From Bdellovibrionales bacterium (GTDB lineage: Bacteria; Bdellovibrionota; Bdellovibrionia; Bdellovibrionales; UBA1609): a stretch of DNA of 64,000 nt. The notes below the pieces were generated by a model, which was not told where the DNA came from, ran no database searches, and saw nothing but the letters and a program-made list of their open reading frames with translations. Both the position numbers and the translations under genes were made by a program. Each line of letters opens with the position of its first letter. Positions within the stretch are counted from its first letter, which is position 1. This document shows, one piece after another, positions 54,820 to 64,000 of the stretch. Where the stretch lies: positions 512,001 through 576,000 of the forward strand of contig CBDBIB010000001.1 of NCBI GenBank assembly GCA_965205945.1, written 5' to 3'.

Positions 54820-55763
54820 TCATTGGTTTAGCTCCTATGGAGGGTGTTTTAGACCCTCTTATGAGAAAATTTATTACTAAAGTAAGCCATGTAAACTATT
54901 GCTCAACAGAGTTTGTTAGAGTTACGAATAAAGTACTCCCTAAGCATACTTTTTTTCATTATGCCCCCGAGCTAAACAATAACTCTAAAACTGAATCAGG
55001 AACCCCTGTGCTTGTACAATTACTAGGGGGGCAACCTGAATGTATGGCTGAAAATGCTTACTTAGCACTCTCTCTTGGAGCATATGGTATTGATATAAAC
55101 TTTGGCTGCCCGGCTAAAACCGTAAACCGTCATGATGGAGGGGCCTCTTTACTTAAATCCCCACAAAGACTTTTTAACACTATTTCAACTATAAGAAAAA
55201 AAATTGGTAATAACATACACCTTTCAGCAAAAGTTCGCCTAGGGTTTTCTGATAAAAGTAAGATTCTAGATATTTCAAAAGCCTGTTCTGATGCTGGGGC
55301 GAGTTGGCTTACCATTCACGCTAGAACAAAAGATGAAGCTTATAGACCTCCTGCTCACTGGCATTTAATAAAAAAAATGAAAGAGGTTTCAAATATACCT
55401 GTTTTTGCAAATGGTGACATTTGGGACCTTAAGGCTTATAAAAAATGTGTACTCGAATCAAGCTGCACTAATGTGATGATTGGACGAGGTCTTATAAGAA
55501 ATCCGTTTCTTGCATCTGAAATAAAAGAAAATATTGAACTTGATGCTGATTTAAAAAACCAAAACACTCTTAAGCTTATCCTTGCTTATTTAAATGAGGC
55601 TCAATTTTTATATGGTGAAAAAACCGCATTAGGCCGCATTAAACAATGGGTAAAAATATGCTCTCACCCTACAAACCTGTTTTTTAAAAATCTATTTGAA
55701 GAAATAAAAAAAATTCGTACTGCAAAAGAAATTATTAAACTTATGTCAAAGAAATTTATTTAA
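54816..55763 (+). CDS. tRNA-dihydrouridine synthase (DusC-like)
   Basis: LAPMEG, INFGCPAKTVNRHDGGA, HART, ANGD, MIGRG. Confidence 0.92.
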   Translation: MIIGLAPMEGVLDPLMRKFITKVSHVNYCSTEFVRVTNKVLPKHTFFHYAPELNNNSKTESGTPVLVQLLGGQPECMAENAYLALSLGAYGIDINFGCPAKTVNRHDGGASLLKSPQRLFNTISTIRKKIGNNIHLSAKVRLGFSDKSKILDISKACSDAGASWLTIHARTKDEAYRPPAHWHLIKKMKEVSNIPVFANGDIWDLKAYKKCVLESSCTNVMIGRGLIRNPFLASEIKENIELDADLKNQNTLKLILAYLNEAQFLYGEKTALGRIKQWVKICSHPTNLFFKNLFEEIKKIRTAKEIIKLMSKKFI

Positions 55764-56332
55764 AGAAAAACTCCTGCGCCGAAAGTTAGATCCATTGAGG
55801 AATAAGTTTTTCCACCTAAAAGATATTTTAAATTTCCTGAAAAAAACATTCTAGAATTCCAAATATAACGACCACCAAACCTTACAAAGGGGCCACCACG
55901 AATTTCACTATCAAGCTCTACAGATTTTAAAAACCTTTCCTCAACTCCAAACCCATAAAAATATGCTGTTTGGCCCACACCGTTAATATATACATTCCTA
56001 GCTTTAAACTCTGACTTAACAGGGCTCCCTTTAAAATAAAAATTTATAAAACCACCTAAACCAAAACTTAAATTTTCTTGACTAATTAAACTGGTTTGAG
56101 CTCCACCAAAAACCCCCATGGCAATTTTAGTAGAAAAATTTATTTCATACTCTGCACCAACAGCGCCCAATGCAATTCTTTTTATATCTTTACCACTATC
56201 GGCTTGAAATGTTTCATGCTGTAAGGCCATTGAAAACACTAGTGAATCCGCATAAGATTCGCTAATAATCATAAATAAAGCTATCAGCACTAATAAAAAT
56301 TTATTAGCTTGCTTTAAAAATTGTCTCATCAT
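55760..56332 (-). CDS. Small outer-membrane beta-barrel protein
   Basis: From ATG 56332: signal peptide ending SYA, about 8 amphipathic strands, C-terminal LTFGAGVFL; overlaps the upstream gene by 29 bp. Confidence 0.72.
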   Translation of the reverse strand: MMRQFLKQANKFLLVLIALFMIISESYADSLVFSMALQHETFQADSGKDIKRIALGAVGAEYEINFSTKIAMGVFGGAQTSLISQENLSFGLGGFINFYFKGSPVKSEFKARNVYINGVGQTAYFYGFGVEERFLKSVELDSEIRGGPFVRFGGRYIWNSRMFFSGNLKYLLGGKTYSSMDLTFGAGVFL

Positions 56333-57986
56333 AATTCTGCGCGCCTTTATAGCTGTAGACTTTTTTGATCTTATTTCTAAAAACTCTCCAGTTAATATTT
56401 GTCTCTTTATTCTTAGAAATTTTTTCTTGAATTCTAAACTGTGTTCTTTCATCTAAAAGATTTATGGCTTCCTTATGATCAATACTGTGTTCTTTAAACC
56501 ATTTTATCTCAGACCCTGACAAATTAGTAAGAAATACTTTAAGTTTAGTTATATCTTCTAAATCAATCCAAGACATACAAGGTATTTCAGCTCTTAAAAC
56601 ATCATTACTTTTCATAGCATCAACTTTAGAAAGTTCACCTTCTGACAATCCATAAATCATATGCACTACTTTAGCATTAACAGATTTTTTCTCTGTGCCT
56701 GATACTTTAAAAGAGTCAGCATTAAGAAAATTTACAAAGCTTTTATACTGTTTATCGGTTGCATGATCTCTTAATGGATCAAACATCAATAAGTCATTAA
56801 TCTTATCTAAAACATTTGAGTCTGTAGATTCTGAAACAAAATTCATAAATTGATCTTTAAATAATTTATATAAAACAATATAATGCTCATTTAAACCATT
56901 TTTAAAAACCTCACTTAAATTATCAGCCTTAGTAGGATACATTGCACTAAATGCTTCTTCAACTAATGCATGAGGCTTAGCATACCTAAGCCTTGCAAGC
57001 GCTACAGAAATAACCGAAAGAGTATTTTTATTAAACCCTTTAGATCTTTGATTGTGCAAAACACTTGAAGCTCTTTTTTCAAAATTATAGACTTCATGAA
57101 TAACCTTATAAGTTTCGTTTAAAATAATTTCAGAAATTTGATTCTGAATTCGAATGATTTCATAAAATTGAATTTGTGTTTGAAGATCCGGCATATGTGC
57201 CCATAAAATATGAGCTGTAGATCCTGGAGATTTCTTATAAGCATCATTTATATTCTGACACAAAGATCCAAAATTAAAGGTTTCAAATTCATGACTATTT
57301 AACGAAATATCTGTGCCATTCTCTAATTCATTATTTTCTCTTTGAGTCTGAGCAACCTGTATACCTTCACCGCCACCAGACATAGTAACCTCACCATCAC
57401 CTTCAGATCTAGATTTCCAAACTCTTGCTAAAAACCACAATGCTACAATAAAACCAATGGAGAAAATTAAAATCCATAAAAATTGACCATTTTTTACTAA
57501 GGTTTTATATGCACCAAAAATAAAATCAGATTTAATATTGTTAACAGCATCTCCTAATTTTGGAGTATCATCTAAGACTGTAAATGCTGTATCTTCTGGA
57601 AGAAAAAGTCTTTCTTTAAGGGAGGATTTTACAAGGGCCATCTCTTCTTTAGAAATCTCTCTTTTTTGAATAAAAACAACTTTTCTTTCATAAAGATTTA
57701 AAACATTTTGTATTTTTGAATCATGTGCATTACCAGTTTTTTGATATAAACCAGGAAGGTTAACTATCAACTCTTCATCTAGCTTAGAATCTTGCCTCTT
57801 TAATTCAATACGAATAGTCAAACTGTCTTCTAATGTATAATCTTTTAAAAGCTGCTCGATTTCAATTTTATGATATTTACTAACAGTTTCATAATCTGAC
57901 TTTATACCAAAGGCATTAGACAGTATAAAAAATAACAATGCCAACACTAATACCGTCTTTTTAATTAAGTTTTTAACTAAACCCAC
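56304..57986 (-). CDS. Single-pass membrane protein; putative FliF-like periplasmic domain plus FliG-like cytoplasmic domains
   Basis: Signal peptide, ~140-aa exported domain, TM FLWILIFSIGFIVALWFLA, helical cytoplasmic part; SD GGAGGGAG. The CDS is solid, the fold call is tentative. Confidence 0.55.
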   Translation of the reverse strand: MGLVKNLIKKTVLVLALLFFILSNAFGIKSDYETVSKYHKIEIEQLLKDYTLEDSLTIRIELKRQDSKLDEELIVNLPGLYQKTGNAHDSKIQNVLNLYERKVVFIQKREISKEEMALVKSSLKERLFLPEDTAFTVLDDTPKLGDAVNNIKSDFIFGAYKTLVKNGQFLWILIFSIGFIVALWFLARVWKSRSEGDGEVTMSGGGEGIQVAQTQRENNELENGTDISLNSHEFETFNFGSLCQNINDAYKKSPGSTAHILWAHMPDLQTQIQFYEIIRIQNQISEIILNETYKVIHEVYNFEKRASSVLHNQRSKGFNKNTLSVISVALARLRYAKPHALVEEAFSAMYPTKADNLSEVFKNGLNEHYIVLYKLFKDQFMNFVSESTDSNVLDKINDLLMFDPLRDHATDKQYKSFVNFLNADSFKVSGTEKKSVNAKVVHMIYGLSEGELSKVDAMKSNDVLRAEIPCMSWIDLEDITKLKVFLTNLSGSEIKWFKEHSIDHKEAINLLDERTQFRIQEKISKNKETNINWRVFRNKIKKVYSYKGAQNYDETIFKAS

Positions 57987-58007
57987 AACACTCCCCTCCT
58001 TCTACTA

Positions 58008-58763
58008 TTATAATACTAAATCTACAAAACTATTTGCTTTATCATCTGCGATCTGCACTCTGACCTCTATACGTCTATTTTTTAAGCCTTTGATTGGAAT
58101 ATACTTATCACTCGAAGGACTTCTATCATTCACTAGCGGCAATGCTGAACCATATCCAACAACCCTAATCCTAGATTCTAACAGTTGATTAGAAATTAAA
58201 ACATTCGCTGCCTGAGATGCTCTTAAAGAACTTAAGTTTAAATTTGTTTTATACGAAGACATTGGATTAACAGCTAAACTGTCTGAATGCCCCTCTACCT
58301 TAATCAAGATTTTATCTTGATAAGGTTTTAGCAAGCCTGCAACTCCTTTTAAAACTTTATGACCATTTGGTTTTAAAATAAAACTCCCTATATGAAAAAA
58401 ATCTCTCTCATATAATCTTAAAAGAATTTCTCTTCTCCTTCTGTTAATACTCATATTAATTTTTTTAATTTCAAATTGAGCTAACTCAGATCTTACCTCT
58501 GCTTCGATTTTTGATAACATCTGAGCACGCATTCTATTCTTACCTTCATTTTTAGTGTTCTCACCTTGTGATTGATGCATATTTTTTCCAAGCTCAATAA
58601 GCATATCCTCATCAGCTTTTTTACTATGCTCATTTAAAAAAGTGATAAAAAAACATAACAGTAATGTAACCGTATCCGCATAAGAAATAACCCACATACT
58701 GCTACTATCTTTCCCATCGCCCTCAAAAATTGATACCTTACTCCTACCTAAATTATGCCGCAC
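58008..58763 (-). CDS. MotB/PomB-family stator subunit with OmpA-like domain
   Basis: WVISYADTVTLLLCFF (ion-binding Asp); VEGHSD, NLNLSSLRA, VGYG, NRRIEV. Confidence 0.92.
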   Translation of the reverse strand: MRHNLGRSKVSIFEGDGKDSSSMWVISYADTVTLLLCFFITFLNEHSKKADEDMLIELGKNMHQSQGENTKNEGKNRMRAQMLSKIEAEVRSELAQFEIKKINMSINRRRREILLRLYERDFFHIGSFILKPNGHKVLKGVAGLLKPYQDKILIKVEGHSDSLAVNPMSSYKTNLNLSSLRASQAANVLISNQLLESRIRVVGYGSALPLVNDRSPSSDKYIPIKGLKNRRIEVRVQIADDKANSFVDLVL

Positions 58764-59553
58764 TCTTAGCTCCTAAACTACCACCAATATAATTAACGGC
58801 CTCTCTTGGCGGCATTAATGAGTTTATTGTGTCCTGAATAACTACTAAAGAGGCCCCATTTTTAACCAAAAGAGCCGTTTCCATAATCAACTGACGCATT
58901 TTAAAACTTTTCTTAGCTCCAATTTCTAAATTGTCTGAAATTGGACTAAAAATAAAATTTGAAATCATTAAACCATAAAGTGTTGTTGTTAAGGCAATAG
59001 CCATATACTGGCCCATTTCACCCATATTAATAGATTCACCCCCTATTGATGACATTAAAGCAATCAAACCGACAACAGTACCAACCATCCCAAAGGCAGG
59101 GGGATACTTTGACATTGATTTGATAATTCCTACTTCATACTTTTCATTATCAAATGTAGACATAATCCTTTGCTCAAGCATTTCTTTTATCTCTTGATCA
59201 TTATAGCCATCATTAATAAGAACTAAACAATCATTTAAAAAAGGATGTACAGTACCTATTGCGTCTGTAGGGGCCCCTTTAAATAAAGACATCTCTGCAA
59301 ACTTCATAAGATCCATACCCATTTTATGAAAACTCTTATCTTTTCTTAAAAAGATTTTCCCTATTACTGATATAACCCTTGTAACATCTGTCATAGAGTA
59401 AGAAAGAAGTACTGCTGAGATAGTCCCTCCTATAACAATTCCTAAACCTAATATATTAACAAAAAATTTTACATCCACACCAGATGTTAAAAATGTCATT
59501 GTCGCCACTGACAAAGCTAAACCTGCACCTATAATTGCGGATATTTTTCTCAT
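58753..59553 (-). CDS. MotA/PomA-family stator subunit
   Basis: IVIGGT, PAFGMVGTVVGLI, MAIALTTTLYG, N..F.P; four TM helices. Confidence 0.93.
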   Translation of the reverse strand: MRKISAIIGAGLALSVATMTFLTSGVDVKFFVNILGLGIVIGGTISAVLLSYSMTDVTRVISVIGKIFLRKDKSFHKMGMDLMKFAEMSLFKGAPTDAIGTVHPFLNDCLVLINDGYNDQEIKEMLEQRIMSTFDNEKYEVGIIKSMSKYPPAFGMVGTVVGLIALMSSIGGESINMGEMGQYMAIALTTTLYGLMISNFIFSPISDNLEIGAKKSFKMRQLIMETALLVKNGASLVVIQDTINSLMPPREAVNYIGGSLGAKSAA

Positions 59554-59556
59554 TTC

Positions 59557-60195
59557 CTATCTCCCTATTTCTTTTTCTAACTGCTCAATAACTGATTTAA
59601 TTTCATAATTTTTAGAATATAAACTAAAGGATCTCTTATAAGAGTTTAAAGCACTTTTCTTATTACCTTTTAAATAACTTAAATTTCCTTCTAAAAGACT
59701 CACCACAGCTCCAGGTGTTTTTAGTCTCTTTAAATTTATAACTTCTGCTCCAGCTTTACTAAACTCACCCCGTAAAAGCTGCTTTTGAAACGCTAGGACA
59801 CTTAAAATTTGAGAGGTGTTTAAATTCTGCATTTTTTCAACCATTTTTTCTTCAACTTCTAACGGAAGAAGCTTCTCTTTTCTTTTAAGCTTTACATTTA
59901 ACTCTCCTTGTTTCCAATCAGAAGGAAGAATCATTTGGTAATCCTCATATTTATCCGAAATAAATTTTAAATAAATAAAATCACCTTTTGCAATCTGTGT
60001 AAAATTCACTTCTAAGGGAGTTCTTCCTATTGAATTACCCAGGTCATGACTCCCATCTCCAAGAATGACCTCAGCTCCAGGGTTAGAGTTTATTTTAATA
60101 ACTTTACCCTTTTTAGGTAAGACTCCACACCCCACAAGGCTTAATATAAATACAGCACTTAAAATTTGAAACAATATTTTCTTATCTATATACAT
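59557..60195 (-). CDS. Lipoprotein with PEGA-like domain and C-terminal TPR
   Basis: Lipobox LVGC; INSNPGAEV...IGRTPL; LEGNLSYLKG...ALNSYKRS. Confidence 0.75.
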   Translation of the reverse strand: MYIDKKILFQILSAVFILSLVGCGVLPKKGKVIKINSNPGAEVILGDGSHDLGNSIGRTPLEVNFTQIAKGDFIYLKFISDKYEDYQMILPSDWKQGELNVKLKRKEKLLPLEVEEKMVEKMQNLNTSQILSVLAFQKQLLRGEFSKAGAEVINLKRLKTPGAVVSLLEGNLSYLKGNKKSALNSYKRSFSLYSKNYEIKSVIEQLEKEIGR

Positions 60196-60217
60196 TTTTA
60201 AAACTCCATTAATAAAC

Positions 60218-60245
60218 TTATCGTCTCAATACATAATCACCTTTA
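60218..60245 (-). promoter_or_regulatory. Possible sigma28 promoter of the lipoprotein-motA-motB operon
   Basis: TAAAG-N15-GACGATAA followed by GGAG and ATG. Confidence 0.45.
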
Positions 60246-60405
60246 CAAAACTCTTATTAAACTGGATTAAAGAATGGCCTTTGATCAAAATCAATTTTCA
60301 ATTCTTAGCTTTAAATAAAACTAAGCCTACATAATTCTACCTAAAAGGTATTAATACCAAAAAAAAGTCTAGGCCTATAAAACTAATTACATAGCAGCTA
60401 CGTAA

Positions 60406-63400
60406 TTAGTTTATAAACCTTAGTTGAGGATATCCATTAACAGGAACAATCCAAATTGTTATAAAATCCCAGCCTGTATAAATTGAATTGTCATAATCTT
60501 GCATTTCCATAGTCGTATGGCCTGAAACACTGCTGCCTATTGTAATAGAGCCATTACCAGTTGCAAATGCTTTAGTTGAAACCTCTTTATCCCAAAAAGA
60601 ATTATTAATTGTATAAAAATTCCCATCCGACTTACCCAAAACACCACCACGATTAGTTGGACCACCTAAAACAGCTGAGGCTGAATAACAATTGTTAATA
60701 ATAATCGAACCCCCTATAAAATCATAACCACCAATAAGACCACCTGCTTGAGACCCTGCATAAACAGCTCCTAATGAGTAACAGTTTAAGATGTTCACAC
60801 TAGAGCCAGAACTTGCATTGATTTTACCTACTAACCCACCATACTGTAGGTTTTGGACAGCAAAATTTGTTCCCACCTGTGAAGTTGAAAAAACTTCAGA
60901 AATACTAAGCGTAGAATTAGACGCTCCATCAATAGAACCAATTAAGCCACCAACACCGCTAAATGACGTATCCACCAAACCTTTAGAATATGATTTTGAA
61001 ATTAACGATGTCTCTAATTCACCAACAGAAACCTTACCTATGAGTCCACCAACCTCACTACCTCCAGAAACTAAACCTCCAGTTGCGTAAGAATTACTAA
61101 GTGTAGAATTTAACATCTCACCAATTAGTCCACCTGATGAATTCATAACATTATGATTTGCTGTAGAATATACATTTGAAATACTTGCATTACTTGCATA
61201 ACCGATGACTCCACCAGCTCTCCTTCCTGTAGAAGTAACCGGTATTTTTGAATATACATTTATAACTGTACCCTCTAAGGTTCCAGCAATACCACCAACA
61301 TTATCTACTGCTAAAACAGCTCCATTTTCTGTATATGAATTTGTAATTGATGCTCCAGATTTAACTTCACCAACTAATCCACCTGCAGTATTGCCAGTTG
61401 CCTGAACTACAGCTCTTGAAAAAGAGCTCTTAAGTTGTTTATTTTCTCCTAGGTTTCCAAACAATCCACCAATATTATTCGTACCCGTAACCATTCCTTC
61501 AGAATAAATTGAACTAAAAACCCCTCCTAAATTAGGCCCCGATAATCCAACAATACCCCCTCCGTACCCAGTAAGGCCACTTGCAGTAACCGTTCCAATA
61601 AAATAAGATTCTGTTACTTCAAAATTTAGATGTTCACCTGACTTTCTTCCAATCAAGCCACCAACATAATCCTCTGCCGTAATATTACCTGTAACAAAAA
61701 CATTTGAAATAAGACCTGTTTTGTTATTTCCACCTTCAGCCACACCAATAATACCACCAACTGATTGAGTAGCCGTAATATCAACATTAACAAGTCCTAA
61801 ATTAGAGACTTGAAAATCTCCAATTACATGACCCAAGAATCCAACATTAAATTGAGCATTGTTATACGTCCAATTTAAAATAATATGCCCATCCCCATCA
61901 AAGTTTCCTGAAAATTTTTGAGTTGTATTTCCCAGAGGATCAAAACTAATATTCATTAAATCAATATTTTTGCCAAGTTTATAGTACTTTCCTGAATCTG
62001 AATTCTGCCTAACATTAGCTAAATGTGTTTCATCACAAATAATATAAGGATCAGCTATACTTTCCCCTGAACCTGCAGCAAAATGTGTATCCCAAGAATT
62101 CGTATCTTCGCACAATGTTGGACTAAAACTATAGGTATATCCATTTGACAAGGTATCTTCTGATTTAACTATATTTCCTAAGAAGGCCGGATTGTTAACC
62201 TTAGTTCTAACCCTAACCTCAACACCACCCGGAGCTTGAGCTTGCGGCGTTATACAAGTCAATGCTTTTTCACTAAGCACATTAACATTGGTACAGGTTT
62301 TACCAGAAATAAGAACCTCAGTATCTTCTCCCACGCCGTTATCATTATCTGAGCTAAACCCTGTTCCATAAACAACAATAAGTTGGTTACCTTGAACAGG
62401 TCCAGCCGTTCCTTTAACGCTTGTAATCGTTAAGATGTTATTAATATCTACGGTAACATTTGCTCTAGACTCATTTCCTTGCTCATCTCTTACTATCAGT
62501 AAATAGTTAATTTTTCTATTTAAATCTGGAGGACCGCTTAGTGGATCCAAATTTAAAGCGTTAGCTGTTGAGATTGTTCCGTTAGTAATTAATGTTGATC
62601 CAAGCCCTCTATAAACAACTTCATCTGTATTTGCTGCAAGGTCCCCCATCTCTGAAACCCTTCTTCTAATTTCAACTTGTAAATCTGCATTATCTGAAGT
62701 GTTATCACTCATCTCCCACTCTAACTCCCACACTTTTGATTTAATAGTTTTTGTAGAAACTAAATTTATAATACTAGGGGGTGTTACGTCAGGAACATTA
62801 AGGTTTCTAGTCAACTGATCACACGTGGTATTGTTTGAGGCATCCTTTGCACAAACAGTATAGTAATATATTTGTGCCTCAATAAGACCACTGTCTTGAA
62901 AAGATAGCATTGTAGTTGATGTTTTTAAATTCCCACTTGGCCTAGATGGATTTAAAAAGTCAAAAGGAGCATTGTTGCTATAAATCTCATATCTAATTTC
63001 AGCTCCAGGCTCTGATGCGTACTGATTATCTATAGCAGAATCCCAAGATAAAACAAACGTTGGCGAAGCTCCAATAGTTAACTTAGAATCAAATATGGGA
63101 GCTGTACTATCAATAGTTCTTTTATCTGAATAGTTACTTACAGGATCTAAATACAGTGTTTCATTATTAACATTATCATATGCTCTTACGTGAAGTCTAT
63201 ACGTTCTATAAGAATCTAATCCATTTACTGTACATTGAGTAATGTTATCCGAACAACCATAGTCAGCACAAGGACATGTCCTCATTAAGGTTAATACATT
63301 AGTTAAAGGATCCACTTGATACACTCTAAACCCTCTATAATCTGTCCAATCTGCTGGTGCATTCCATTTAACCGTAAATTCACCTTCTCTAGGTGTTAAA

Positions 63401-64000
63401 ATTTCTGAAGGTCCTTTAATACCAATAAAATTAGGAGGAGGTGTCACGTCAAAAACTGTTGTCGATCTAAAAACCCCTGTTGTTGAGCAATTCTGTACAC
63501 CAAATGGGGACTCTGTCATGTCACATGCTTCTACTAAAGCATAAACATCATCATTATCTAAAATTGAAAATTCAGTATTGGAAATTGATGCACCCGTTGA
63601 CGACACTGCATGGCTTTTTAATAAAACTACAGGGTTTTGAGGAAGTTCGGATTGATTTGCCCATAATGTTATTTTATACTCTTTAATATCAGAAGCCGTG
63701 CTTGCATTCCATGAAAGGTCTAAAAATTGGCTCTGATCATTAAAAGCTATTCCTTGAATACCAATAAAATCTGGAGGCGTGATGTCTAATGTGTTTAGTT
63801 GTAATGAATTGTTATTTGTTGAAATATTCCCTGCTAAATCAACAACCTTAATACATACGGAATGATATAATTTTTCACTTAAACCTATTAAATCAAAATT
63901 TACGACTGCTTGAGCCGTATAGTTTGAAACATTAAGCTCTTCTTGTTGTACTCCAGAGACACACGAATTACTTGTAATCGGAGATGGACTAGATAATAAA
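60406..64000 (-). CDS. Giant surface protein (FN3-like repeats, IPT/TIG domain, GLUG beta-helix); 5' end lies beyond the window
   Basis: Frame is open from 63999 with no stop (LLSSPSP...VDLAGN...DITPPDF); D.TPP.F and RAYD..N FN3 motifs; GP.QG...G.GF IPT; many VGGL.G GLUG repeats; ends WDF..IW....GYPQL. Confidence 0.88.
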   Translation of the reverse strand, partial: LLSSPSPITSNSCVSGVQQEELNVSNYTAQAVVNFDLIGLSEKLYHSVCIKVVDLAGNISTNNNSLQLNTLDITPPDFIGIQGIAFNDQSQFLDLSWNASTASDIKEYKITLWANQSELPQNPVVLLKSHAVSSTGASISNTEFSILDNDDVYALVEACDMTESPFGVQNCSTTGVFRSTTVFDVTPPPNFIGIKGPSEILTPREGEFTVKWNAPADWTDYRGFRVYQVDPLTNVLTLMRTCPCADYGCSDNITQCTVNGLDSYRTYRLHVRAYDNVNNETLYLDPVSNYSDKRTIDSTAPIFDSKLTIGASPTFVLSWDSAIDNQYASEPGAEIRYEIYSNNAPFDFLNPSRPSGNLKTSTTMLSFQDSGLIEAQIYYYTVCAKDASNNTTCDQLTRNLNVPDVTPPSIINLVSTKTIKSKVWELEWEMSDNTSDNADLQVEIRRRVSEMGDLAANTDEVVYRGLGSTLITNGTISTANALNLDPLSGPPDLNRKINYLLIVRDEQGNESRANVTVDINNILTITSVKGTAGPVQGNQLIVVYGTGFSSDNDNGVGEDTEVLISGKTCTNVNVLSEKALTCITPQAQAPGGVEVRVRTKVNNPAFLGNIVKSEDTLSNGYTYSFSPTLCEDTNSWDTHFAAGSGESIADPYIICDETHLANVRQNSDSGKYYKLGKNIDLMNISFDPLGNTTQKFSGNFDGDGHIILNWTYNNAQFNVGFLGHVIGDFQVSNLGLVNVDITATQSVGGIIGVAEGGNNKTGLISNVFVTGNITAEDYVGGLIGRKSGEHLNFEVTESYFIGTVTASGLTGYGGGIVGLSGPNLGGVFSSIYSEGMVTGTNNIGGLFGNLGENKQLKSSFSRAVVQATGNTAGGLVGEVKSGASITNSYTENGAVLAVDNVGGIAGTLEGTVINVYSKIPVTSTGRRAGGVIGYASNASISNVYSTANHNVMNSSGGLIGEMLNSTLSNSYATGGLVSGGSEVGGLIGKVSVGELETSLISKSYSKGLVDTSFSGVGGLIGSIDGASNSTLSISEVFSTSQVGTNFAVQNLQYGGLVGKINASSGSSVNILNCYSLGAVYAGSQAGGLIGGYDFIGGSIIINNCYSASAVLGGPTNRGGVLGKSDGNFYTINNSFWDKEVSTKAFATGNGSITIGSSVSGHTTMEMQDYDNSIYTGWDFITIWIVPVNGYPQLRFIN

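Follow-up and report, generated by a model that had tools for sequence, protein, structure and literature searches.

Candidate flagellum-independent rotor–stator module with a FliF/FliG-like membrane protein in a Bdellovibrio-like bacterium

The closest described system to the locus reported here is the flagellar motor, in which the stator protein MotA touches the rotor protein FliG. In Escherichia coli, FliG R281 and D288/D289 are contacted by MotA E98 and R90, the conserved charged rotor-contact residues of MotA, and the 2025 survey describing them relies on the plug, the OmpA domain and an expanded cytoplasmic interface to diagnose flagellar motility (its 'FIT' group; PMC12505986). Several comparable motors work outside flagella. 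GldLM (PorLM) of the Bacteroidota is an inner-membrane ion motor of the 5:2 type, linked via the periplasm and the outer membrane (OM) to the very large surface adhesin SprB; according to a 2026 review, it resembles MotAB in architecture without being homologous (PMC13104615). The Agl–Glt machinery of Myxococcus, from a related predatory lineage, is likewise ion-driven, non-flagellar and envelope-spanning (PMC13104615), and its motor AglRQS is of the TolQ/TolR type and was grouped with 'generic ion transporters' (PMC12505986). In Salmonella pathogenicity island 4 (SPI-4), the MotAB-like pair SiiAB is genetically linked to the giant non-fimbrial surface protein SiiE (bioRxiv 10.1101/641415). 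ZorAB of the Zorya system is a further MotAB-related 5:2 unit outside the flagellum. Here, we analyzed a stretch of 64,000 nucleotides from a Bdellovibrionales bacterium (the window; positions 512,001–576,000 of contig CBDBIB010000001.1, in a genome of 1.87 Mb with 32.5% G+C, five contigs and 97.3% completeness), in which six minus-strand open reading frames (ORFs), all co-directional, lie between position 55760 and the window end. In the order of transcription, they encode a giant lipoprotein, a lipoprotein of 212 amino acids (aa), MotA, MotB, a protein of 560 aa (P560) and a small OM barrel candidate. We consider it fairly probable that the five packed genes form a flagellum-independent rotor–stator module derived from the flagellar motor.

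The stator genes compare closely with their flagellar counterparts. MotA matched the Pfam family MotA_ExbB (6.2e-19), and its residues 6–255 aligned with the solved structures of flagellar MotA (6ysf, E 2.2e-25) and PomA (8brd). Within NCBIfam, the PomA, MotP and MotA models were favoured (PomA 1.9e-33 versus TolQ 0.0034), with scores far under every equivalog cut-off (e.g. 115.9 versus 341 bits). In transmembrane (TM) helices 3 and 4, the PPAFG and FSPISDNL blocks retain their conserved prolines. MotB matched both MotB_plug (31.9 bits, cut-off 24) and OmpA (55.3 bits, cut-off 27.2) in Pfam as well as the MotB family of NCBIfam (6.6e-27), and its Asp30 fell into the alignment column of the PomB pore Asp. 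This Asp, the plug and the OmpA-like anchor are features held in common with the flagellar motor. Judged by its sequence, the pair is a flagellar-type stator whose pore Asp is intact and which carries a peptidoglycan anchor, and the initial annotation of the locus, which had called a true MotA/MotB pair with the conserved Asp and a peptidoglycan-binding domain, is upheld by the Pfam matches, the alignment with solved structures, Asp30, the plug and the OmpA domain. At E ≤ 1e-10, this MotA is the sole MotA-type gene of the genome; six other MotA_ExbB-family matches lie in frames of differing lengths (175–449 aa).

The same comparisons set the locus apart from the TolQ-type motors. Unlike AglRQS, and unlike Tol–Pal and ExbBD, the window stator is of the MotA/PomA type by the scores given above, carries plug and OmpA domains and is paired with a putative FliG-like protein. 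Zorya differs as well, since no ZorC/D-like genes were found here. PADLOC returned no match for MotA (ZorA included), P560, the 212-aa lipoprotein or the barrel, and MotB reached ZorB at a generic level only (3.2e-13, versus 6.6e-27 for flagellar MotB models). On the PADLOC result, we rejected Zorya and other defence systems.

Next, we looked for a flagellum that this stator could serve. FliG_C, FHIPEP, Flagellin_N, YscJ_FliF, FliP, FliMN_C and Flg_bb_rod each gave 0 matches in the whole 97.3%-complete genome, and each of these searches was positive in Escherichia coli, Bacillus subtilis, Caulobacter vibrioides and Thermotoga maritima, among 14 control genomes. The locus differs from the flagellar motor in that its genome holds no family match for export gate, rod, hook, filament or FliM/FliN, and from the FliG–FliM–FliN switch complex in that FliMN_C is unmatched. 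Because seven flagellar families are unmatched in the genome, the window stator cannot serve a flagellum and is not an ordinary flagellar stator. The earlier remark that flagellar genes are missing nearby can consequently be extended to the whole genome. A separate flagellar motAB and fliFG set, for which the initial annotation had suggested a check, was not found (no FliG_C, no YscJ_FliF and a single MotA-type gene at the threshold above).

Among the P560-bearing genomes, FliG_C was found in 0 of the 4 searched (the window genome G000, G078, G082 and G161), and in 0/3 genomes each of the window's genus and of a second P560-bearing genus. Across the taxonomic family, 39 of the 61 sampled genomes carry it. 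The genomes without FliG_C belong to 11/35 sampled genera (22/61 genomes) and are mostly 1.2–2.2 Mb in size, and the pattern suggests that flagella were lost repeatedly or anciently in small-genome lineages of this Bdellovibrio-like family. Flagellated relatives also contain, besides the true FliG, extra frames of ~230–290 aa with FliG_C matches at 1e-8 to 1e-15. Besides that, the window genome encodes six T2SSE-family ATPases.

The putative rotor component is P560. In its AlphaFold model (AF2; mean predicted local distance difference test, pLDDT, 74.9), an N-terminal hydrophobic helix (signal peptide or TM1) is followed by a single RBM3-like alpha/beta domain of ~115 aa in the periplasmic part (about residues 30–145, with the fold itself modelled at 32–139), a TM helix (~169–193), a disordered linker (~190–230) and an all-helical cytoplasmic domain (231–560; 330 aa). 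Residues 231–548 were predicted at a pLDDT of ~90 in the full model, and the cytoplasmic domain modelled alone had a pLDDT of 82.4. With its 330 residues, this domain has approximately the length of the true FliG of relatives (345–353 aa). A Foldseek search with the cytoplasmic-domain model returned FliG for all top four PDB matches, the best being 8umx_B (E 0.021, probability 0.95, TM-score 0.24), with none at E 0.001. In an independent structure search of 48,161 chains, FliG took the top three places and 8 of the 14 best for the same domain. The matches were colinear (model 124–197 with FliG_M 113–186, and model 238–317 with FliG_C 235–321), and the structure scores for this predicted domain are individually weak. 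For the periplasmic domain, FliF RBM3 was the best structural match among the 48,161 chains, ranking above the type III secretion ring proteins CdsD, PrgK, EscJ and PrgH and above SpoIIIAG/AH.

P560 therefore resembles the flagellar rotor in matching FliF RBM3 and then FliG best, in that order on one chain. It differs from FliF in having one RBM-like domain of ~115 aa, no RBM1/RBM2 and no long beta-collar, and from FliG in a sequence that has diverged past detection by Pfam. Engineered FliF–FliG fusions are reported to form rings still (PMC11481574; PDB 8z4d). Two descriptions of P560 are well supported, if indirectly: that of a one-polypeptide 'mini FliF–FliG' with one RBM3-like periplasmic domain, one TM helix and a FliG-colinear cytoplasmic domain, and that of a fusion-like descendant of FliF RBM3 and FliG. 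A FliF/FliG-like nature of the 560-aa protein had been proposed from the beginning, and remote, partly transitive evidence now speaks for it, namely the structure searches, a chain of profile comparisons and shared sequence signatures. GldLM, by comparison, works without a FliG-like partner, its torque being taken up in the periplasm by GldM, and no features of the type IX secretion system were detected at the system described here.

The profile chain runs through cassettes of relatives. A FliG_C search in these genomes also matched frames of ~570–610 aa located in cassettes of the same kind. In one of them (L032), the order equals that of the window, with TPR lipoprotein, MotA, MotB, a 601-aa protein and OM barrel. 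Pfam FliG_C scored 24.6 bits in this 601-aa type at L032 (cut-off 23.3) and 26.4 bits at L052, and across the cassette proteins the scores fade from 45.6 to 26.4, 24.6, 19.0 and 17.7 bits, then to none. A third type (L029–L031) has matches to FliG_N, FliG_M and FliG_C and aligned with the solved Aquifex FliG (2.5e-20 over FliG 115–327) and with the relatives' true FliG (hhalign 97.4%, 278 columns; HMMER 1e-13 to 2e-16). The P560 family matched the same-position 601-aa family over 511 colinear columns (hhalign 96.8%, E 2.4e-10) and also the third type (84.5%, E 7e-6), which was also matched by the 601-aa family (89.4%, E 2e-6). Plain HMMER matches across families were found at 6.8e-8 (a 601-aa-family member against the P560 profile) and 7.9e-10. 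As a control, the reversed 601-aa alignment still matched the P560 family with E 0.0034, over the TM region.

All 21 proteins in a merged alignment of the three types have a signal-peptide-like N-terminus and a periplasmic LPG motif, and they share a helix with an Arg and an acidic residue at +7. In P560, this pair is Arg514 and Glu521 (i, i+7), which align with the R...DD found in FliG_C-positive cassette proteins and are among just 7 invariant residues across 30 P560-family sequences; the second acidic position is Lys in P560, and the register of the cassette proteins against true FliG is uncertain by one residue. The Arg...(+7)Glu pair, lying where the FliG-positive relatives have R...DD, may be a further likeness to the flagellar motor. 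Nearly all of the FliG-like membrane proteins, whichever of the three types they belong to, have a C-terminal Ala-Ala or Ala-Ser (P560 residues 558–560). The cassette MotAs share this ending (MotA residues 264–266), which is reminiscent of C-terminal protease-recognition tags.

We further investigated how far the gene set is conserved. The six-gene order is identical in 5/5 orthologous loci (the window and L019–L022) at P560 identities of 46–83%, and a five-gene core recurs in divergent cassettes, so the expectation of a conserved gene order was borne out. P560 itself has 38 close homologues with at least 44% identity, all unnamed or 'hypothetical' and one labelled Bdellovibrionales. Its profile found 22 clusters among 1.84 billion cluster representatives, and the protein is present in 6/201 genomes sampled in the order and in 3/401 sampled in the phylum. 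A locus search with the P560 alignment yielded 5 loci, all from metagenome-assembled genomes labelled Bdellovibrionales. In three divergent P560-type cassettes, the lipoprotein, MotB, the P560-like protein and the barrel are kept, and MotA is present in L023 and L025. The remaining cassette (L024:7218-10900, genome G170) encodes a 201-aa MotB-like protein without a plug match and is either a decaying copy or a borrower of the stator from the main cassette in the same genome.

Of 20 further MotA loci from relatives, 9 have a P560-superfamily gene beside MotAB and 11 do not; the latter comprise 3 probable flagellar stators, 5 loci with another neighbour set and 3 at a contig end. A maximum-likelihood tree of 30 MotA proteins, labelled by the family of the neighbour, grouped the proteins by neighbour type. 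The P560-type MotAs form one clade (100/100), which is sister to the 601-aa type (100/97), and the putative flagellar MotAs stand apart on long branches. The 601-aa type occurs in 19/61 family genomes, all in genera that have FliG as well. Because of this co-occurrence with flagella, the cassette is a separate machine coexisting with them. The other neighbour set (L038, L039, L043–L045) was seen in non-flagellated relatives, including the window's genus. There, MotA and MotB precede a ~500-aa GYF_2 protein, a ~1140-aa protein and a LysM protein, and the MotAs form a clade of their own (99/97). This set may represent another type of stator system that works outside flagella.

Outside the inner membrane, the partners of the stator differ from those in the flagellar motor, being two lipoproteins, one of the TPR/PEGA type and one giant, and a small OM barrel. 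The 212-aa lipoprotein, with its lipobox at residue 20, has no Pfam match of its own. Its same-position homologues in sister cassettes match TPR families, the Atlas clusters closest to it (score 0.98) hold TPR/PEGA proteins of ~200 aa from Bdellovibrionota, and by BLASTP it is 25–85% identical to the product of the gene in this position at 12 other loci. Similarly, the last ORF (230-aa version) lacks a Pfam match of its own. Same-position genes in sister cassettes gave sub-threshold matches to OMP_b-brl, MipA and Opacity (1.6e-4 to 9e-3), the closest Atlas clusters (score 0.97) belong to OM beta-barrel, OMP_b-brl and DUF2715, and the gene is conserved in position in 7 other P560-type loci.

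The giant protein consists of a lipobox Cys, a Gly/Ser-rich linker, several FN3 domains, one IPT/TIG domain and a C-terminal region of GLUG repeats (Pfam TIG 1.4e-10, fn3 2.1e-08 and 4.8e-15, GLUG 0.0059, the last below cut-off). Its gene lies directly upstream of the cassette in 5/5 orthologous loci, and all 5 orthologues have the lipobox-type N-terminus. Large lipoprotein genes also adjoin 7/7 sister-type cassettes. All 8 large genes (~1000 aa) beside these cassettes encode an N-terminal hydrophobic stretch ending in Cys, and 5 of the 8 fit a strict lipobox pattern.

The coordinates of the six genes are given in Table 1. They confirm that all six are co-directional and, as had been noted, that five of them overlap or lie within 21 bp of each other. 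The giant gene is separated from the 212-aa lipoprotein gene by 210 nt. The lipoprotein gene is followed by MotA after 3 nt, MotA and MotB overlap by 11 nt, the P560 gene begins 21 nt after MotB, and it overlaps the last ORF. For this last ORF, the versions in relatives comprise 190–215 aa and align only from residue 34–41 of the 230-aa version onwards; the true start is therefore probably the Met at 56332. A scan of 55500–60700 for promoter and terminator consensus sequences found no excess over shuffles (25 vs 22; 2 vs 1.9), which neither supports nor breaks operon status.

Table 1 Features of the candidate rotor–stator locus in window coordinates.
Feature	Position	Strand	Description and basis
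Giant surface lipoprotein gene	60406..64000, continuing past the window to an ATG at window-equivalent 65190	-	1594 aa; ORF, Pfam, lipobox
212-aa lipoprotein	59557..60195	-	Lipobox, PEGA-like N-terminal domain, TPR-like C-terminal part
MotA/PomA-type stator A subunit	58753..59553	-	266 aa, four TM helices and cytoplasmic domain
MotB-type stator B subunit	58008..58763	-	251 aa, TM helix with Asp30, plug region, OmpA-like peptidoglycan-binding domain
P560	56304..57986	-	560 aa; AF2 models, structure searches, profile comparisons, alignments
Small outer-membrane beta-barrel candidate	55760..56332 (longest ORF start 56452, 230 aa)	-	~190 aa, signal peptide, aromatic residue near C-terminus

In the surroundings (flanking stretch L001), one gene resembling thioredoxin/AhpC and another for an SLT lytic transglycosylase lie on the plus strand (L001:2595–4195), divergent from and directly upstream of the giant gene. 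Lytic transglycosylases are frequent companions of envelope-spanning machines. Two more very large minus-strand ORFs are located ~4 kb upstream of the giant gene (contig positions 579631–595000), of 1229 aa (L001:4631–8320) and of more than 3906 aa (L001:8280–20000, open at the end of the stretch examined). The former has a single weak match to a beta-barrel porin family (BBP2_2, 0.015).

If the cassette is a rotor–stator module, ion flow through MotB would turn the MotA pentamer, with the MotA5B2 unit anchored to peptidoglycan. MotA would push on P560 at its FliG-like C-terminal domain, where a helix bears the invariant Arg514...Glu521, and P560, as an RBM3-built ring or as a mobile unit, would carry the movement across the inner membrane into the periplasm. 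From there, the PEGA/TPR lipoprotein and the small OM barrel would relay it outwards to the outer membrane. The likely output in this subfamily is the upstream FN3/TIG/GLUG lipoprotein, which would be moved, tensioned or exposed for gliding or for attachment to prey or substrate. We infer that the giant lipoprotein is the output of the machine, that P560 forms a ring and that something rotates. A bolder version, to which we give only tentative credence, is a free-standing rotary or track engine in which a FliF-RBM3/FliG ring spun by MotAB propels giant lipoprotein adhesins by way of the TPR lipoprotein and the OM barrel. This would add a third adhesin-conveyor gliding system of independent origin, and the locus would be a candidate motor for gliding or prey attachment in Bdellovibrio-like bacteria. 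The 2026 review calls the gliding motor of Bdellovibrio unidentified (PMC13104615).

Several results weigh against the derivation from the flagellar motor and the assignment of an output. P560 had no Pfam or NCBIfam match, PF01514 (YscJ/FliF) included, and no PDB sequence match at E ≤ 10; 16 distant members of its family likewise had no Pfam match at E ≤ 1, be it to FliG, FliF or any other family. When the domains were compared separately, P560 matched the 601-aa family at 51% (E 1.5e-4) with the cytoplasmic and at 25% (E 7.8e-4) with the periplasmic domain, and these values fell to 0.8% and 3% against the third, clear-FliG type. By hhalign, the relatives' true FliG, a thin profile of 3 sequences, was matched at 0.2% by the P560 family and at 2.4–3.2% by the 601-aa family, and BLASTP of P560 against a 601-aa sister protein gave no match. 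On the stator side, the aR[RK]E..l.lE block of the putative flagellar MotAs, which we take to be the site of E. coli MotA R90/E98, has no conserved charged counterpart in seven P560-type MotAs aligned with MAFFT. This is a difference from the flagellar motor, and since these MotAs have no conserved charges in the rotor-contact block, the MotA–P560 interface, if present, would be rewired. Finally, the giant gene is absent from 3/3 divergent P560-type cassettes, one of which (L024) is also without MotA. The giant protein, counted by the initial annotation as a member of the set, thus kept this place in 5/5 orthologous loci but does not belong to a universal core.

One alternative to the rotor–stator module is a device that uses the ion-motive force to export, anchor or retain the giant lipoprotein, energising its release, retention or folding rather than moving it, as SiiAB do for SiiE. 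The large lipoprotein gene beside the cassette in 5/5 orthologous and 7/7 sister-type loci fits such a role, and SPI-4 provides a precedent (bioRxiv 10.1101/641415). SiiAB, however, accompany a type I secretion system (T1SS; SiiCDF), whereas the window operon contains no T1SS gene and combines a giant lipoprotein with a FliG-like partner. ABC transporter, membrane-fusion and TolC-like genes are likewise missing from the operon, the Sec/lipoprotein signal of the giant protein does not correspond to a T1SS design, and cassettes without a large neighbour exist. To our knowledge, no FliG-like partner has been described among secretion-energising 5:2 motors. We consider this device unlikely. A T1SS/SiiAB-like system in the strict sense was rejected, given the lack of T1SS genes in the operon and the lipoprotein signal on the giant protein.

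Less probable still is an envelope tether or maintenance system of the Tol–Pal kind, in which a partner that spans the periplasm helps to couple the ion gradient to OM stability or constriction and the giant gene is a mere neighbour. The kinds of parts are similar, with a 5:2 motor, a peptidoglycan-binding domain, a TPR protein like CpoB and an OM protein, and some cassettes do lack the giant gene. However, MotA is of the PomA/MotA rather than the TolQ type (1.9e-33 versus 0.0034), the six other MotA_ExbB-family genes in the genome could do the Tol and Exb jobs, and the narrow distribution (3/401 phylum genomes) is unlike that of a housekeeping system.

We regard it as similarly improbable that P560 is unrelated to FliF and FliG, with common folds explaining the likeness and MotAB driving another transducer, as is the case with TonB or GldM. 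Such a view would account for the failure of the direct P560–FliG comparisons and for structure scores in a range that the tool itself calls middling. Against this, each of two independent domains had its flagellar rotor counterpart as the top match in the search of 48,161 chains, all five genes have homologues, in unchanged order, in cassettes where the partner protein carries Pfam FliG_C, and the MotA tree makes both cassette types sisters. Flagella were probably lost in the lineage, because 39/61 sampled family genomes have FliG, but a decaying remnant of a lost flagellum without present function is very hard to reconcile with six ORFs that are neither broken nor rearranged in any of five genomes, at identities as low as 46%, with the many residues that never vary, and with a cassette of the same kind that coexists with flagella in 19/61 genomes of relatives.

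To put the rotor–stator module into context, we searched the literature, mostly without subscription journals, and found no report of MotAB being paired, outside flagella, with a naturally occurring FliG-like protein anchored in the membrane. The stator survey lists 379 homologues, which might include such stators (PMC12505986). The MotAB–FliG interface has been treated as flagellum-specific. Here, that stator type is conserved in genomes without a detected flagellar gene, and the stator always stands beside a membrane-anchored protein that we trace back to FliG. The locus adds a member so diverged that Pfam misses FliG, a whole-genome absence of detectable flagellar families, three co-diverging cassette types within one bacterial family and a recurrent link to large surface lipoproteins. 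If the proposed reading is true, the rotor–stator pair would be portable, having been put to new use in the cell envelope during evolution, and five genes would make a compact system for torque generation without the other flagellar genes, which number roughly 40. It would also bear on the origin of the flagellar motor and give Bdellovibrio-like bacteria a concrete candidate machine for moving on surfaces or attaching to prey.

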